A stretch of DNA of 64,000 nt from Lophium mytilinum. Taxonomy: Eukaryota. The DNA lies in the NCBI GenBank assembly GCA_010093605.1, contig MU004188.1, positions 437,673 to 501,672 on the forward strand, in the 5' to 3' direction. This document shows, piece by piece, positions 20,895-35,326 of this stretch. A program made the position numbers and the translations under genes. How positions within the stretch are numbered: position 1 is the first letter of the stretch; the number at the start of each line of letters is the position of its first letter. The notes beneath the pieces are model-generated. The model saw only the letters and a list, made by a program, of their open reading frames with translations. It had not been told where the DNA came from and did no database searches.

Positions 20895-21985
20895 ATGCTG
20901 CCAGTTAGAGCCTGCAGGAATGTCGTCGCTCAGGGCAGATCTCTCTCACCGCTCGCCGCTCGAGCTAGTTTGCTAAAATCCTCACCCGCAACGCATCCCC
21001 GAAGGCCGAACGTTGGAAGACTGCAACAGCGACACCAGAGCAGCGTTAGCAGCATACCAGGTAAGACTTCTACCGGCGAATGTCGGAACTGTGCAAGGGT
21101 GGACATTGGCATTAGCACTGGGGGTATTCATCAAATTGAGCTTACTGTATCATCGCAGAAACTCCGTCGACCTTCCCACCACCACCGCCCTTTCCCCCGC
21201 GCCAGCGACCTGGGATCCTCTGGACACTCTTCAAATACGCCTCCATAACCGTCCTCTGCACCACCGCCGGCTTCGCAATGGCGGCCGCCCCCGCGTACGA
21301 GACGATCCAGGAGATCATCACCCCTCCGACGGACGCGGAAACACTCGAACTATTCACCGCGGATTCAGAAGTCCTCGCAGAGATCGACGAGACGCTGTTC
21401 GCACATCCCCTCGTCAAATCGCTACTCGACGATCCCAAATTCATCGCATCACGCCCACACCTGAAGATCCCGCCGTCTCTGCGGCCACATAACCTTATGG
21501 GCGGAGCACTCATCGGAGAAAACAAGATTGGCGTGCCGCCGCTCACGTTCACCACGGAGGACGGCTCGCGGTTTGTCAGCGTGCAGCATCTCGGCTCTGC
21601 GCTCTGTGGGCACCCTGGAGTTGTGCACGGAGGGTTACTGGGAACGCTGTTGGATGAGGGGCTGGCGAGGTGTTGCTTTCCGGCACTACCGAACAGGGTG
21701 GGCGTGACGGCGAGTCTAAATATCACATATAAGAAGCCATGTATGGCGAACCAATACGTTGTCCTACGAGCTGAAACGACAAAGGTGGAGGGGCGGAAGG
21801 CGTGGGTGACGGGGAGACTGGAGACGCTGGTGGACGAGTCGAAAGGGGAGGTACCGATAGTGTTGACGGAGGCGGAGGCTCTATTCATCGAGCCGAGACA
21901 GGCAGCAGTGAGTGCTCTCGTTTGAGGCGTGAGGAGATGGTGTGCTAATTGGTCGCAGACGATGGCGAGGGTCTACTCGACATGA
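20895..21985 (+). CDS. Hot-dog-fold acyl-CoA thioesterase, probably mitochondrial (3 exons)
   Basis: HLGSALCGHPGVVHGGLLGTLLDEGL PaaI-type motif and a presequence-like N-terminus. Introns near 21061-21158 and 21908-21958; stop TGA at 21983-21985. Confidence 0.85.
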
Positions 21986-22403
21986 GAGAACCAAGCCGGC
22001 CGGGCGGGCTTTTGGAGAATCTTCGTACTATCTATACGAATAACGAGGATATCTAGGTTCTATGGACGTTTGTAACAGCATTTGCATACACAGCCAACCA
22101 CGCGAACGAAAGAGAATGAATCGTCGCAGCATGGAGATACCAACATAGAAGCAACGCGATTTTGCGCGGCCTCCGCGAAAGTTTTGTATAGAGCAATGCT
22201 TCGATGAGACTAGCATTAGACACGGTAATTATAGATTTGCGCTCACGATGTGCATATCTATCTACACCCTGGTTTCTTTAAATATCAAGTGATTTCACGT
22301 CTACCTTAGAAATCCATCCACCTTTCAAAAATTTCTAGAGAGTTCTGAATATAGAAAGAATGCTGTGCCATCGCCGAGAATTGAACCTAGTTCAACAGAC
22401 AGC

Positions 22404-22540
22404 AAAAACTCGGGCCTAAGCCCTACAAAAACCCCTTGGTGCACGCAGGGGATTTGATTAGAGGATTTGAACTGCAGGATCAGCTAGATCCTGTTGTACT
22501 GTCTTACTAATAAGGCAGCACCCGGAGTGGGACTGGCTGC
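22404..22540 (-). ncRNA. Putative Pol III structured RNA, unit 1 (family not recognised)
   Basis: TATATA at ~22556-22562. Hairpins include CAGGATC-5nt-GATCCTG and GGGC-TTAG-GCCC. T5 run at 22404-22408 and B-box GGTTCAATTC at 22378-22387. Confidence 0.6.
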
Positions 22541-22659
22541 CTCGAGTATTTTGACATATATACCTCATGTCAAAGTCGACAAGTGAAGATAATTGGCTCG
22601 AGGAAAAAGCAAAAAGAAAGATGCCAACCCCACGATTCGAACACAGATCTATGAGCGGC

Positions 22660-22800
22660 AAAAAACTCGGGCCGAAGCCCTACAAAAACCCCTGGTACAA
22701 GCAGGAAGTTTTTAGGTTCTAGTTGGGCCGCTGCAGAGAACCTGCAGCGGGCAAATAGAAGACTCACGAATGAGGCAGCCCCCCGAAAGGGACTGGCTGC
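22660..22800 (-). ncRNA. Putative Pol III structured RNA, unit 2
   Basis: TATATATA at ~22815-22822. Hairpins GCAGCC..CCC-TTTC-GGG..GGCTGC, CCGCTGCAG-5nt-CTGCAGCGG, AAAAACTTCCTG..CAGGGGTTTTT and GGGC-TTCG-GCCC. T6 at 22660-22665 and B-box TGTTCGAATC at 22634-22643. Confidence 0.65.
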
Positions 22801-22902
22801 GCCGAATGTTTAGGTATATATACCTACCGTAAGGACAATTTTACAATTGATTAACAACTATAATGAAGGCATGCGATCCACGATTCATGCCCTCTAAAAC
22901 GC

Positions 22903-23002
22903 AGAAGGCTCGGGCCGAAATCCTACAATAACCCCTTGGTACACATAAAGAATCTTCTAGGTCCTAGATAAGTTTCTCAGCGCCTTTACGGGGACTAGGT
23001 GC
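22903..23002 (-). pseudogene. Degenerate unit 3 of the RNA array
   Basis: Retains GTACCAAGGGGTTATTGTAGGATTTCGGCCCGAG. TATA is mutated (TATGTGCA), hairpin 2 is deleted, and the T-run and B-box are disrupted. Confidence 0.55.
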
Positions 23003-23119
23003 GCTAAAATCTAATGCACATACCCACCCACCAAGCATTAAGACTTGATTGATCAATCACCGCCTAAAACAGAAAGAGAGACGTCCACCCTGCGAATCGA
23101 ACCTAGACCCACGAGAGGC

Positions 23120-23255
23120 AAAAAACTCAAGCAGAAGCCTGAGAAAACCCTCAAGCGAGGATTTTTTTAAAATGGTTTGGGAGGTTGCGGGTAATCCGCA
23201 ACCTCAACGACCACAGACTCGTAACCATTGAGCCCGGCCCCGAAGGGCGGTGGCG
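23120..23255 (-). ncRNA. Putative Pol III structured RNA, unit 4
   Basis: TATAAAAA at 23272-23279, 31 nt before GCCC-TTCG-GGGC. A-box-like GGGCTCAATGG at 23225-23235. Hairpins GAGGTTGCGG-5nt-CCGCAACCTC, AAAATCCTC-GCTT-GAGGGTTTT and CTCAGGC-TTCT-GCTTGAG. T6 at 23120-23125 and B-box GGTTCGATTC at 23094-23103. Confidence 0.65.
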
Positions 23256-23519
23256 GCGCTGAATATCTGGGTTTTTATACTTAGTGGTGAGATCAGGTGA
23301 TAGGATCGTTTCTTATTTTACTAAGTACGAATTTCCTTCTCACATAGAAACCGAATCTCGGCTTAAGGTTACAACGATTTGCACTAGCTTGTTACAATAA
23401 CTTACTGGGCAAGATGTCGCTTTTTCAGTTGTCTTCTCACTTCAAATGGTTAGCTAATAGATCTTAATAGACCCTTTTATAAAGCTATTCCTATATCCTG
23501 ATTGATACCTCCCTTAAGG

Positions 23520-23590
23520 AAAATCAAAACGGGCGTGTCTCGCCTACTCCGCCAGCTCATCTTCATCCCGGAGCTACCTGGCAGTATCCC
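23520..23590 (-). pseudogene. C-terminal remnant of a fourth family B gene
   Basis: Translates as R*LRDEDELAE*AR, against MWLREDEVAEWA (B2) and RWVLDDELAEWA (B3). Confidence 0.5.
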
Positions 23591-23649
23591 GATTATCAGC
23601 TGTGCTAGGCCGAAGCATCCGACGCTCGCCCATCTAGCATATAGACTAT

Positions 23650-24747
23650 TAGTGCATAAGGCCCCCTTCGATATAGTGCACCTTCTTCCGGGCCTCGTAG
23701 TCTGCCTCATGCCGTCGTATGTCGATCATGATGCTCTTAGACTACTTCGATATCTCGTCTTCCCTTGCCAAGATCGAGTGCTCCTGAACACCAAAGCAAT
23801 CATCCGCAAGCCTTTTCGTCGGGGCCCTACCTTTCCACCATTCTCCTTCGTCATCTTCTCTATAAGTATTCGGATCCTCTCCCCGAGCATCCTCCAGAGG
23901 AACTTTTGTGGCTTTCCAAGGAAAACACCATAGCTTCACCGCATCCAAAGCCTCGCACTCACGCACGAGCTCTCTGAGTCCGAAGCAAATGGCATCCAGC
24001 ACACCCAGCTTTGTGTAGCAGACGTCGAGAAACGAAGGTGAAGGGTCAAGACCTGTAGACTCGAGTAGTGCTGAGCGAGATAGCGCAGGGAAAGTGTCTG
24101 CTTCGCGAACCTGAAACCATGCCACTTCTTGACGACTACGAGATTGTGACGTTGAGACTCCTTGCGGCCCCGACCGACGTCGGATGTGAGGGTCACGTGG
24201 GTCATGAGGCGGAAGCTAAAGTGGGTCATTAACATGTAAGAGGTGGGCCTAAATAGAAATGATTAGTATGGTCTGTCCCTCGTTGATACTCGCATGGTCA
24301 CTCACCTATTGCTTAGCCTGTCCTCGATTATGACCCTTCTTATCTATTCTGTACTCGCTTAAGTAGGGAGAACATGATGGTCGCACCGTCGCCTTGGTGT
24401 ACTCAATGCTCGTAGTGCTTCGGGTAGTGGCCAAAGGTATGCGAGTGTCACTGATGCACATGCTTGTGATATTGCTCCGGAGTAAGCTGTCATTTTGATC
24501 GCGGTGGGTCATCTTCGGGTTGTCTGCAGAGCCGATATTAATCTAGTGTGAGAGAAATCCACAAATAACAACCCAATCTAAACCGAACGTCGCGACCGCT
24601 TCCCGCATCACCGTTATACATGTGAGTTCAAGGCCAGAATACGCGACCGGCTACGGAAAACCTGAGGTATGAGTAGATGAGTCGTCGGAGTTCGAGAGGA
24701 ATTGCGTCTAAGAGGCTCGGTTGGTGATGCTACTCTGGTTTGGTCAT
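23650..24747 (-). pseudogene. F-box-like family B pseudogene (B1)
   Basis: Starts MTKPE*HHQPSLLDAIPLELRRLIYSYL. Later segments FRLMTHVTLTSDVGR, LSLRYLAQH and AREDEISK*SKSIMIDIRRH fall in different frames; there are stops and frameshifts. Confidence 0.75.
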
Positions 24748-25668: not shown

Positions 25669-26818
25669 CTATAAACCATAATCCCTCTTGTGATGCCGAA
25701 TATCCAGCATGACATCCATCGCCCACTCCGCTACCTCATCTTCCCTCAACCACATCGGGACCCCCCCGACATCGAGCACCCTCTGGACCGGAACCCCCTT
25801 CAATCCATCCTGAACCCCATACTCATCCACCTCCCACAGCTCCAGCGCCTCTACAGACGCGGCTGTCGGCTTCGGGTCCCAGGCCAGATACTGAAACCTC
25901 AAGGTCTGCAACTTCTCGCACTTTTGCACCAATTCCAGTAGGCTGAACGTAATGGCGTCGAGTCCGCTCATCTTCGTCTTTGTAAGTTTGGTTGCGGATG
26001 GTACAAACGTCAAACATATCAAATTCGGGCAGTGTTGTGCGATGTACCGAATCGAGAGCGCTTGTTTCGCCAAGTCAGTCCGATGCCATTTCTTGGTGAC
26101 GGAGGGAGGGTGCGGGTATCGCTCTCTCGCGCTGCTGCCGATACGGCTCGTGAGCGTGACACGGGTCATGAAGCGAAAGGGGAAAGGGGACAGCCTCATC
26201 GGTTCGCCAGTGACGGACTTCTTGGGTTTCCTGGGGAAATAAGATTGATTAGACTGTTTCCCCGGTCCATTTTCTAGGAGAGACTCACCAAGCTGACTTG
26301 CCCCTGGAAGTCCTCTCACTACTCAGTTGGTAGTTGAACACAACCTCGGCCTTCCGGACAATAAGCGAATACAGGTCCGCGGCGATGAACTTGTTCACAC
26401 ACAGTAACGCTCGCGCTCCCTTCAACGCCTCAAAGTTGTAGAAGAAGAAATGGCCATAGACATGATGGTTTGAATAGGACTCCATCTGGACCTGCAGGGC
26501 ATTTTCCATCGTGACAGCTGTCGGCACTTGTAGCAGAGAATCGCCGGGGTTCTTGAGTGTAATTGTGGTGAGCGTGCTCCATAAACACGTTTCGTATTGA
26601 CTCCTGTGGTTTTTCTCCCACCCTTCTTCGGCGATGATGTGGGCCCAGTGAGAGGGTACGTTGCAGTAAGTTCTCCAAAACGACTCTAGCGACATAGGGC
26701 AAGGTTGAAAGAATCGGCGGGCGACGGGAAGTCCAAGGTACGAGTATATACGCTGGCGAATCTCAAGGGGAAGAAGTTCCAGGCGACTCCATCGATATTC
26801 TGTTGCCTTTTTGGCCAT
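25669..26818 (-). CDS. F-box-like family B gene (B2), 2 exons
   Basis: SRLELLPLEIRQRIYSYL. A 58-nt intron at 26288-26231 (GTGAGT...CTAAT...CAG) joins ORFs 26285..26818 and 25669..26319 in frame. Confidence 0.85.
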
Positions 26819-32947: not shown

Positions 32948-35326
32948 TCAGGATGGGACTGGCTGCACCTCTAACGCGGCACCATCGTCCTGTATAGTGA
33001 CCTTTGCAACATCACCCCCTTTGACCTCACCACGGATGATCTTGTCCGCAAGCCCGTTCCCGATTTGCTTCGCGATCAGGCGATTGAGGGGACGGGCGCC
33101 GAACCTGGGGTCGTATCCTCGGTCACAAAGCCATTGCTTCACGTTATCAGATACGTCCAGAGTGATGCGACGATCATCCAGTCGCTGCTGCAACTCTTTC
33201 AATCGAATGTCTACGATGTCACGAAGAGCTGCACGGGAAAGTCTTCGGAAGAGAATAAACTCGTCGATACGATTCAGGAACTCAGGGGGGTATGAGGAGG
33301 CCACAACGTCCATCACAGCTTCCTTGGTCTTTGGAGAAATCTGATCATCATCTTCAGGAGTCTTAGATCTGTGAAGCATGTCTTCGCCAACGATGATGTC
33401 GGCTCCTAAATTCGAAGTCAAGACGATAATTGTGTTCCGGAAATCGATCTTGTGGCCTTGAGAGTCGGTCAAGAAACCCTCGTCGAGGACCTGGAGAAGG
33501 AGCGCCGATATGTCGCGATGAGCTTTTTCGAACTCATCAAACAACAACACTGCGTAAGGCTTTCTTCGAACAGCCTCGGTGAGTTGTCCCGCATCGTCGT
33601 ATCCAACATAGCCTGCAGGACTTCCTATGAGCCTGCTTATCGTGTGTTTTTCCTGGAATTCGCTCATATCAAACCGGACGACGGCTGTTTCGGTGGAGAA
33701 GAGGAAGTTTGCCATTTTCTTGCACAGCTCGGTCTTGCCAACACCAGTCGGGCCCAAGAACATGAAGCTAGCTAGAGGGCGGTTGTCTCCACTGAGTCCT
33801 GCTCGCTGCATACGAACAGCATTGGCGACCGCTGTTAGGGCTTCGTCCTGACCGCGCACGTGCTGTCGAAGAGACTCTTCCATATGGATCAGCTTTTCGA
33901 CCTCGCCTGCCATGAGCTTTGTGACTGGGATGCCAGTCGTTCGGCTCACAACACCAGCGATATCATCTGCGGTGACGGAGTCGTGTATGAGCGTGTCGGA
34001 TGATTTTCCACCAGCGTCGTCCTCGCTTTGCAACTTGCGTTCGAGTTCCGGGATCTGCGAATACCTCAGCTCGCCGGCTCTACCAAAGTTTCCTTCTCGC
34101 TGGGCTTTCTCAAGCTCAAGCTTCGCCTTTTCCAAATTCTCTTGTGCATTCTTGATTTCTTCGATCTCGGCCCGCTCCTTTTCCCACTTGTCCATCAAGG
34201 TCTTGACCTCCTCTTGCTTTGATTTGAGGGTGCTCTCTAGCTTTTCCCGTCTCTCTTTACTAGCTATGTCGGTCTCTTTGCGCAGCGACTCAAGCTCAAT
34301 TTGAATAGTCATAATCTGTCGATCAAGCTCTTGGATTGCATCTGGTTTACTTTCTTGTTGCAAACGGAGCGCACTGGCCGCTTCGTCCACCAGATCGATA
34401 GCTTTGTCTGGAAGGAAGCGATCGGTTATGTAGCGATTACTATATGTCGCAGCAGCGACAAGAGCCCCATCGGTTATTCGCACACCGTGGTGAACTTCGT
34501 ATCGCTCCTTGATGCCTCGAAGAATGGATATCGTATCCGGAACACTCGGCTCGCCGACAATGACAGGCTGAAACCTCCTCGCAAGGGCCACATCTTTCTC
34601 AATCATCCTATATTCGTTGAGCGTAGTAGCACCGCAGCATTGCAGCTCTCCGCGGGAAAGAGCGGGCTTTAGAAGATTGCTGGCATCAATGCTGCCTTCC
34701 GCTTTGCCTAGGCCCAGCAAAATATGTAGCTCATCGACGAAAAGTATAACACCACCCTTCGCATCTTCCACTTCCTTCAACACCTTCTTAAGCCTCTCTT
34801 CAAAGTCTCCTCGAAACTTAGCTCCAGCTATGAGCTGGCCCAGGTCCAACGAGATCACCCGTTTCTCCTTTATAGACTCTGGCACATCGCCCTGCACAAT
34901 TCTTTGCGCGAGACCCTCAAGAATAGCTGTTTTCCCTGTGCCCGCAGCTCCAATCAGAACTGGGTTGTTCTTCGTCCGTCGCGATAGAATCTGTATTGTG
35001 CGGTGTATCTCGGCGGCTCTTCCAATTACGGGATCTAGTTTTCCGTCCCTTGCGCGCGCGGTGAGGTCGACGCCGTATTCTTCTAACGCAGACTTCTCGG
35101 GCTCGCCACCCAAGTCCATTCGATGGGTACCACCTGGGGGTTGCGGTCGACCCCTAGCGTAGAATCGCGCGGCTGTTGTTGGTAACAAACCATTGCTTGA
35201 GAAGATCGGTCTGATCGAGACAGGATGGGTATATAGGGCGGAAGCGCGGGCAGCTTGTAATCTAGAGGTCCTTGGAAGAGGTGTTGAGAGCCGTCTTGCA
35301 GCAACTTGCGCTCTGCTGGACAACAT
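32948..35326 (-). CDS. HSP78: Mitochondrial ClpB-type disaggregase
   Basis: Two AAA+ modules ([16 protein letters not shown]), coiled-coil middle domain, SPAGYVGY pore loop, a presequence, and no Clp N-domain. Confidence 0.95.

Follow-up and report, generated by a model that had tools for sequence, protein, structure and literature searches.

A tandem array of putatively tRNA-derived units with an SNR6-like promoter layout in Lophium mytilinum: a candidate family of Pol III genes

The products of RNA polymerase III (Pol III) known from filamentous fungi are few and comprise tRNA, 5S, U6, signal recognition particle (SRP), and RNase P RNAs and some precursors of microRNA-like RNAs (milRNAs). 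BC1 and BC200 are lineage-specific Pol III RNAs of tRNA or SINE (short interspersed nuclear element) descent, and they reportedly combine a tRNA-derived 5′ part refolded to a hairpin with an A-rich middle, a 3′ stem-loop, a terminal U run, and a TATA-like element. SNR6, the U6 gene of Saccharomyces cerevisiae, has a TATA box, an A block, and a B block that lies downstream of the coding region and is essential in vivo (PMC5855946). In Neurospora crassa, Pol III transcribes TATA-dependent and tRNA-linked precursors of non-tRNA hairpin RNAs, among them milR-1, which depends on a TATA box, and milR-4, which is cotranscribed with tRNA-Ala genes and released by RNase Z (PMC3547838). The snaR genes of African great apes form a small, fast-evolving, lineage-restricted Pol III RNA family (PMC3045588), and the miniature retrotransposons with terminal repeats (TRIMs) named Helenus carry tRNA-like promoter sequence in short repeated fungal units (PMC10886601). 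Here we describe a tandem array on the minus strand of a 64,000-nt stretch of DNA from Lophium mytilinum (GenBank assembly GCA_010093605.1, contig MU004188.1, positions 437,673 to 501,672 of the forward strand), called the window below and used for all coordinates. On balance, we lean toward a reading in which this array consists of three intact genes with one defunct copy, all members of a small Pol III gene family that would be particular to this lineage and would have arisen from a tRNA gene.

The units lie head to tail between 22345 and 23290, three of them intact and one decayed, with periods of 257, 243, and 217 bp, in line with the spacing of about 200 to 260 bp in the original prediction, which had been made from the sequence alone. 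That prediction had counted four genes; four minus-strand units are indeed there, but only units 1, 2, and 4 are intact, unit 3 is pseudogene-like, and the family extends beyond the array. A repeat search placed a 33-nt module from the 3′ end of each unit in a single family of four copies (22404-22436, 22661-22693, 22904-22936, and 23121-23153), whose identities to the reference are 100, 97, 79, and 70%. Allowing up to 3 mismatches, the window has 3 occurrences of the 27-nt core of the module, where shuffled sequence predicts 0.00. The parts of units 1, 2, and 4 (Table 1) follow one another in the same order: a TATA box; 22 to 25 nt; a hairpin at the 5′ end; a small hairpin; a long and perfectly paired central one; an A-rich tract; a hairpin designated H4; a U-tract; a further hairpin, H5; GAG with a run of 5, 6, and 6 T's, respectively; and then, 17 nt on, a B-box.

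A TATA box at the right distance, a T run, and a B-box beyond it together make this an SNR6-like promoter layout. The distance from the first T of the TATA box to the 5′ hairpin, or to an acceptor-like GCC, is 22, 22, and 25 nt in units 1, 2, and 4, and a TATA box about 25 to 30 bp upstream of the start, as in SNR6, is present in all three intact units if the start sites are placed as we infer them. All three likewise have a B block downstream of the T-run terminator. The likeness to SNR6 had been part of the original prediction, and the succession of upstream TATA box, A-box-like motif (clear in unit 4 only, where GGGCTCAATGG lies about 20 nt past the presumed start), T run, and B-box beyond agrees with the published layout (PMC5855946). 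The order of elements is equal, and the logic would match too, with TFIIIC on a B block outside the RNA, whereas the distance from A to B is about 200 bp in SNR6 (PMC5855946) and about 132 bp in the array units. The array differs further in that its RNA would not be U6, its B-box stands 17 nt past the T run inside what looks like the remnant of a tRNA 3′ end, and its family is multicopy and in tandem.

The last T's of the T5, T6, and T6 runs are at 22404, 22660, and 23120, and the B-box core GTTCRAWTC is intact 17 nt beyond the run in 3/3 intact units. The offset of 17 positions reported previously is thus exact, and because the units are paralogues, it reflects shared descent without insertions or deletions and not three independent coincidences. 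What is nonrandom about the B-box decamer is its fixed position past the T run and not its frequency: GGTTCGAWTC with up to one mismatch occurs 5 times in the window against 8.2 expected, so there is no window-wide enrichment. A regular expression for a run of at least five T's followed within 24 nt by a B-box-like motif matched in the 64-kb window at the three array sites only, and it gave 7 matches in the 482,792 bases searched from other fungal loci. The T-stem around the B-box has decayed in part, with 4/5, 5/5 (three of them wobbles), and 3/5 pairs left in units 1, 2, and 4; set beside a B-box core intact in all three, this suggests a constraint at the level of the DNA, that is, TFIIIC binding. 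Unit 3, as aligned, lacks the central hairpin and has only degraded counterparts of the TATA box (GGGTATGTG), the T run (CCTTCT), and the B-box (GCATGAATC); the joint loss of these three signals is what would be expected of relaxed selection on a whole transcription unit. As a separate observation, the TATA region of unit 4 (23269-23279; TATAAAAACCC) is the reverse complement, bar one base, of part of the U-tract in the modules of units 1 and 2 (22424-22434 and 22681-22691), which may be coincidence.

Paralogues inherit their spacing, and more is to be learned from which parts were held constant as the rest drifted. Units 1 and 2 share 97% identity in the 3′ module and 78% in the region of the promoter and 5′ hairpin; their central regions cannot be aligned. 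Perfect pairing nevertheless extends over 7 bp in the central hairpin of unit 1, 9 bp in that of unit 2, and 10 bp in that of unit 4, in sequences that are unrelated to one another. In an alignment of the 3′ halves of all four units, 84.2% of cells pair, compared with 32.9 to 62.7% when the partners are slid by 1 to 3 columns, and the covariation score is 0.442, compared with 0.108 to 0.267; 6 to 9 of 500 shuffles reached the observed values, which come from 3 or 4 paralogues and from a structure drawn from the same sequences and are suggestive only. The earlier claim that helices are kept despite sequence change is supported by sequence in both the central hairpins and the 3′ half. The 3′ module, the last 33 nt of the predicted RNA, is the most conserved part, where the strongest constraint lies, and would probably be a protein-binding or stabilizing end. 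Sm-class small nuclear RNAs carry a single-stranded RAUUUUUGR between two hairpins. Between H4 and H5, units 1 and 2 have the sequence GGUUUUUGUA, whose first base is G, and unit 4 reads GGGUUUUCUC; the U-tract is predicted to pair with the A-tract. We also note that the A-tract, the first U-tract, and the terminal U run (22404-22460, 22660-22715, and 23120-23170, minus strand) would topologically permit a U.A-U triplex, the A-tract of unit 1 being only 3 A's long.

The connection with tRNA came from a covariance model (CM) of the 3′ half of the units, CM R1, which was run over 80 fungal loci (483 kb) that hold the thioesterase-like gene neighboring the array. Outside the window its only match below E 1 was L044:2859-2915 (E 0.011); a match in L073 (E 3.7) was set aside as chance. 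In L044 the alignment covers only AGATC, a T-arm (stem of 5 bp, all paired; loop TTCGAAT), GGTCGGC, a discriminator A, and T6, and the same order of parts, that of a tRNA-type end, stands directly past the T run in the array units (spelled out for unit 2 in Table 1). The strand after the T-arm can pair with the very start of the predicted RNA, which reads GCCAGTC in units 1 and 2 and CCACC in unit 4, at 7/7, 5/7, and 5/7 positions, and minimum-free-energy folds show this pairing; the seven bases right after the T run are an alternative partner for this acceptor-type 3′ strand, with 6/7, 6/7, and 5/7 pairs. A D-arm-like hairpin holding the A-box is kept in unit 4 only, and the small hairpin of units 1 and 2 aligns at its place. 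We infer that the units descend from a tRNA gene whose middle was replaced or filled by a new structured body with its own terminator. Among tRNAs, the tRNA-like 3′ end of the units may be most like that of tRNA-His. At L044:2776-2912 (plus strand), on a fungal metagenome contig, the match is preceded by further features, so that the locus reads ATATAA, a 5′ hairpin, a 21-nt tandem duplication, a perfect T-arm, an acceptor 3′ strand, a discriminator A, and T6. Neither ARAGORN nor Rfam called a tRNA in this stretch of L044, which may be a tRNA pseudogene or a further non-tRNA gene with the 3′ part of a tRNA at its end. In L079:3269-3615 and L080:3272-3618, ARAGORN with introns allowed reported a "tRNA-Lys" interrupted by a 248-nt intron; the call is probably spurious and from within coding sequence.

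If the array is a set of Pol III genes of this origin, TFIIIC would bind the B-box, once the T-arm of a tRNA and now 17 nt past the terminator, and also what is left of the A-box, the former D-arm, which unit 4 keeps intact and units 1 and 2 have in degenerate form; TFIIIB would be placed on the TATA box. Pol III would initiate at the 5′ hairpin, some 22 to 26 nt beyond the TATA box, and would terminate at the T5-6 run to give an RNA of about 135 to 141 nt. This product would begin with a 5′ hairpin containing the former acceptor 5′ strand and continue with a central hairpin that varies in sequence and is always perfect; in its 3′ part the A-rich tract would pair with the U-tract as an extension of H4, followed by a short 3′ hairpin and an oligo-U tail. 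Pol III machinery suited to such genes exists in filamentous ascomycetes, since that of Neurospora makes noncanonical hairpin RNAs (PMC3547838).

Besides the small number of paralogues behind the structure statistics, several points weigh against these being genes of tRNA descent that make discrete RNAs. ARAGORN, run with and without introns, found no tRNA or tmRNA in the window, which upholds the earlier statement that the units are not tRNA and gives no confirmation of tRNA ancestry. In a scan of single deletions of the four units, which asked if removing one insertion restores a cloverleaf, ARAGORN made 0 calls in 36,796 variants (9,295, 9,945, 9,555, and 8,001), and Rfam gave no partial tRNA match at the array (22000-23700 at E ≤ 10; 22598-22664). 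The A-box survives in units 1 and 2 as a degenerate remnant. The internal T5 pointed out previously in those two units is real (GGGGTTTTTGTA; the equivalent in unit 4 is only T4), and it lies 21 nt before the final T run and could end transcripts earlier, so that some might stop about 26 nt sooner. Folding energy cannot separate the strands: the z scores of the predicted RNAs of units 1, 2, and 4, which fall below shuffled sequence, are −1.48, −3.32, and −5.68 on the minus strand and −2.62, −4.07, and −3.88 on the plus strand, which is about as good. Because of this similarity, the strand call rests on the orientation of TATA box, T run, and B-box and on G-U pairs. Pairing is kept past the terminator, which suits a transcribed element as well as a relic. 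Finally, no copy was seen outside the source organism, in a very small search space: with a genome total of about 15 copies, <1 copy is to be expected in 483 kb, and the absence is uninformative on conservation.

The transcript data likewise count in part against a discrete RNA. No sequencing run on record as RNA holds the stretch. One run, X3, is RNA-like: a contig at a depth of 1317 skips the GT..AG intron of the neighboring gene (21908-21958). The only RNA-like contig on the array in this run is 405 nt long (22867-23271, depth 5.1). It starts 14 to 17 nt upstream of the presumed start of unit 4 and passes through the T6 run and the B-box into unit 3, and units 1 and 2 are uncovered except for module matches from other loci. 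Read-through, low-level transcription by Pol II, and DNA carry-over could each account for the contig, which neither demonstrates nor excludes a discrete small RNA and supports no conclusion on expression.

The crossing of the unit 4 T6 run by this contig would also fit a read-through precursor, in which the tRNA-like minihelix past the T run is cut by RNase P or RNase Z and an upstream RNA with a U-tail is set free. The mascRNA element is said to act in this way for MALAT1. In the array the minihelix begins at the first base after the T run in 3/3 units, and 75% of cells are paired in its acceptor-like part and 81% in its T-stem, with G-U to U-G changes, two-sided changes in 3+1 pairs, and wobble pairs that are valid on the minus strand only; a second T-rich stretch follows the acceptor-like strand. 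There is precedent in Neurospora milR-4, a non-tRNA RNA that RNase Z frees from a Pol III tRNA transcript (PMC3547838). We nevertheless regard such processing as quite unlikely here, since a run of T5 to T6 straight after a hairpin should halt most Pol III and the second T-rich stretches are weaker (T3 to T5), the T-stem of unit 4 retains only 3/5 pairs, and with the B-box of other copies 6 to 10 nt past the T run there is no space for an acceptor strand.

Those other copies place the array in a wider family. The 33-nt module recurs in at least 6 places on at least 5 further contigs of two DNA sequencing runs that hold the window and are probably its source, two of the copies standing 252 nt apart on one contig. 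In the loose ends (30 nt) downstream of the dispersed modules there is a T run and then a GGTTCG-type B-box at 6 to 18 nt; upstream there is an A-rich tract and a different hairpin where H4 would be, and similarity to the array starts at 22692/22693. As the dispersed copies share these loose-end features, the architecture and not the module alone is common to the family, whose size by contig depth is of the order of 10 to 20 copies. The family is small and dispersed and is not a high-copy SINE; a tRNA-derived SINE, which has its A- and B-boxes together in the 5′ head of the transcript, a tail of A's or repeats, target-site duplications, and many copies, was also set aside on the position of the B-box past the terminator and the T run that ends each unit. 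Within the window, CM R1 with filters off gave no further copies, and its three extra matches scored 9.7 to 10.3 bits (E 6 to 9). An exact search for the module pattern had no match in metagenome or prokaryote genome collections, and blastn of 22332-23300 found nothing similar in the 80 fungal loci with the neighboring thioesterase-like gene, of which the two closest, L001 and L002 (72% nucleotide identity in the gene), have a different gene downstream.

A multicopy family that is both tandem and dispersed, with one unit visibly decaying and no homologue seen in the other fungal loci examined, might also be a selfish or structural repeat without a functional RNA, either a tRNA-related repeat in decay (for instance a transposable-element fragment or a local satellite) or a DNA-only cluster of TFIIIC B-boxes. 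B-box clusters of the "extra TFIIIC site" type are known from yeast. At each unit of the array the plus strand has a purine-rich tract before a TG, and tRNA-like sequence does occur in small nonautonomous fungal long terminal repeat (LTR) elements such as Helenus (PMC10886601). There are no terminal inverted repeats or LTR-like pairs around units or array, none of 25 inverted pairs listed flanking a unit, and the family has about 10 to 20 copies and not hundreds. The unevenness of conservation, with a module 97% identical between units 1 and 2 beside a central hairpin that is unalignable and yet perfectly paired, is also unlike neutral decay. Helenus LTRs hold the A- and B-boxes together within the tRNA-like part and are accompanied by a site for primer binding (PBS) and a polypurine tract (PPT) (PMC10886601), whereas in the array a terminator parts the B-box from the head of the unit. 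Membership in Helenus, whose elements have two LTRs around a PBS and a PPT and target-site duplications of 5 bp (PMC10886601), was rejected, as the array has no direct pair resembling LTRs apart from the repetition of the units and no PBS follows a CA end; the array lacks an ordered PBS and PPT and shows no target-site duplication, and its host is a Dothideomycete, whereas Helenus is reported from Pucciniales and a few Agaricomycetes (PMC10886601). A plus-strand reading as PPT, short LTR, and PBS was also rejected, since the PBS-like TGGTAC/TGGTGC is not kept elsewhere in the family, where a different hairpin stands, and the "LTR" would be only about 72 nt. A silent repeat or a DNA array for TFIIIC binding is, in our view, rather unlikely.

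The start of the dispersed similarity also bears on whether the variable core of units 1 and 2 is a spliceosomal intron of about 72 to 76 nt, whose removal would join the conserved 5′ hairpin and 3′ module in a mature RNA of about 65 nt. In both units consensus-like 5′ splice sites (GTAAGA/GTGAGT) stand right after the conserved 5′ part, at the border of the variable core (22432-22507 and 22692-22767, minus strand), followed by CTAAT/CTAAA and then by AAG/CAG, whose AG adjoins the conserved module and is the point at which similarity to the dispersed copies begins. The length is typical of this fungal group, in which the neighboring gene has an intron of 51 nt, and fungal U6 and U3 genes may hold spliceosomal introns (PMC5855946; PMC5832005). 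Unit 4 lacks GT at the homologous place, GTGAG doubles as the 3′ strand of the D-arm-homologous small hairpin, stem H4 buries the 3′ AG, and no contig contains a spliced joint. A GTRAGW hexamer has an estimated chance of about 0.1 of occurring in 140 nt, and we consider an intron very unlikely.

The original prediction had proposed that the units were perhaps derived from U6 and had likened the start of unit 4 to the 5′ hairpin of filamentous-fungal U6, and we take the start of H4 (CCCCUGCG) to resemble the start of the U6 internal stem-loop. The promoter layout, too, matches that of SNR6 (PMC5855946). Neither U6 (RF00026) nor U6atac gave an Rfam match at 22000-23700 even at E ≤ 10, the AGC triad and the ACAGAGA box (the latter, as stated before) are absent from all four units, a regular expression for the U6 core motif had 0 matches in the window and the 80 loci, among which no U6 gene was found, and the segment past the terminator resembles the 3′ end of a tRNA; descent from U6 is close to refuted. 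No other catalogued family gave a credible match either, as had been surmised: the Rfam search that the prediction called for returned 0 matches over the full window at gathering score. With the threshold relaxed to E ≤ 10, the stretch 22000-23700 gave Histone3 (13.1 bits, gathering score 34) and PhotoRC-I (11.6 bits, gathering score 45) and nothing else; both were dismissed as chance, as were two matches of <9 bits on 22598-22664.

A bolder reading, possible but doubtful, is that these are functional genes of an undescribed class of fungal RNA, made by conversion of a tRNA gene, with its T-arm left as an extragenic B block, to a Pol III gene for a new structured RNA of about 140 nt, with a self-protecting 3′ end and a central hairpin particular to each paralogue. 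The conserved 3′ module would then be the self-protecting end: the A-tract would pair with the first U-tract, H5 would turn the chain, and the U-tail would run parallel to the A strand and could form a U.A-U triplex in the groove, and the central hairpin, variable and always perfect, would give each paralogue its specificity. MALAT1 and PAN RNAs are said to clamp their A-tails, and the proposed U-tail triplex would be the mirror image of this. A nonexhaustive search of the open-access literature returned no description of such an RNA family. The kinds involved, an SNR6-type split promoter and young Pol III RNAs of the BC1 or snaR type, are already known, and no new category is needed.

Reading the array as a small Pol III gene family, we see the likeness to BC1 and BC200 as an analogy of origin and not as membership, with no brain-type function in the array RNAs. 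BC1 reportedly has its B-box inside the RNA and is single-copy, in which it differs from the array units. The snaR genes, a family of likewise restricted compass, reportedly are of Alu-related origin and stand in tandem arrays without an extragenic B-box, whereas the array units have one. With the Neurospora milRNA precursors the array shares a filamentous ascomycete host, putative Pol III transcription, and noncanonical hairpins tied to TATA or tRNA sequence (PMC3547838); its hairpins of 7 to 10 bp would be too short for Dicer, and no unit contains an intact tRNA. If the reading is true, a multicopy family of new structured RNAs extends the list of Pol III products in filamentous fungi, the array is a second natural case, besides U6, of a B block acting from past the terminator, and a tRNA gene has been caught in conversion to the gene of another RNA with both promoter halves kept. 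The compact TATA/B-box units would also be candidates for guide RNA expression in fungi without characterized U6 promoters. If the units are silent repeats, they are merely a curiosity of repeat evolution.

Table 1. Parts of the tandem array in window coordinates; RNAs and their boundaries are predictions
Feature	Position	Strand	Details or basis
Whole tandem array (units 1, 2, 3 [decayed], and 4)	22345..23290	−	CM R1 matches all four 3′ halves, E 1.8e-22 to 1.8e-29
Most conserved 33-nt 3′ module, reference copy	22661..22693	−	H4 end, U5, GUA, H5 hairpin, GAG, T run; repeat search; recurs on other contigs of the organism
Unit 1 TATA box	22556..22562	−	TATATAT, 22 nt before 5′ hairpin; stands with the unit 2 and unit 4 TATA boxes in the alignment
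Unit 1 predicted RNA, about 137 nt	22404..22540	−	5′ hairpin GCAGCC... to GAG+T5; fold: 5′ hairpin, central hairpin, H4, H5; start placed from TATA spacing, possible error about 5 nt
Unit 1 central 7-bp hairpin	22475-22493	−	Predicted fold
Unit 1 tRNA-3′-end-like segment	22366..22403	−	Directly after T run: acceptor-like strand, T-arm with B-box GGTTCAATTC (22378-22387), CGATGGC-A
Unit 2 TATA box	22815..22822	−	TATATATA; sequence reading, unit alignment
Unit 2 predicted RNA, about 141 nt	22660..22800	−	5′ hairpin with UUCG-type loop to GAG+T6
Unit 2 RNA parts	within 22660..22800	−	Small hairpin CUCAUUCGUGAG, 9-bp central hairpin (22723-22755), A-tract, H4, U-tract, H5 GGGCUUCGGCCC
Unit 2 tRNA-3′-end-like segment	22622..22659	−	GCCGCTC, AT, AGAT, T-arm CTGTG-TTCGAAT-CGTGG (B-box TGTTCGAATC, 22634-22643), GGTTGGC-A; resembles L044:2871-2899
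Unit 3, decayed copy	22853..23030 (about)	−	3′ module 79% identical to reference; repeat search, alignment
Unit 4 TATA box	23272..23279	−	TATAAAAA; sequence reading, unit alignment
Unit 4 predicted RNA, about 135-138 nt	23120..23257	−	GCCACC to T6; fold
Unit 4 RNA parts			Hairpin GCCCUUCGGGGC, D-arm-like hairpin with A-box GGGCTCAATGG (23225-23235), 10-bp central hairpin (23181-23205), A7 tract, H4, H5 CUCAGGCUUCUGCUUGAG
Unit 4 tRNA-3′-end-like segment	23082..23119	−	B-box GGTTCGATTC (23094-23103), GGTGGAC-G; T-stem 3/5 pairs left

The thioesterase-like gene (21278-22331, plus strand) is convergent with the array, and its 51-nt GT..AG intron is confirmed by the RNA-like contig that skips it, which stops at 22331 and so leaves about 15 nt to where unit 1 ends. 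Farther away, at 32948-35326 on the minus strand, lies an intact gene for an Hsp78/ClpB-type mitochondrial chaperone that is 97% identical to a Mytilinidion resinicola protein and has its other best matches in Dothideomycetes. Beside the array, the open reading frames at 23936-24235 and 25669-26319 (both minus strand) share the motif MTHVTLTS...KKWH...AKQ.LS.RY.AQH, which suggests a locally duplicated gene family.

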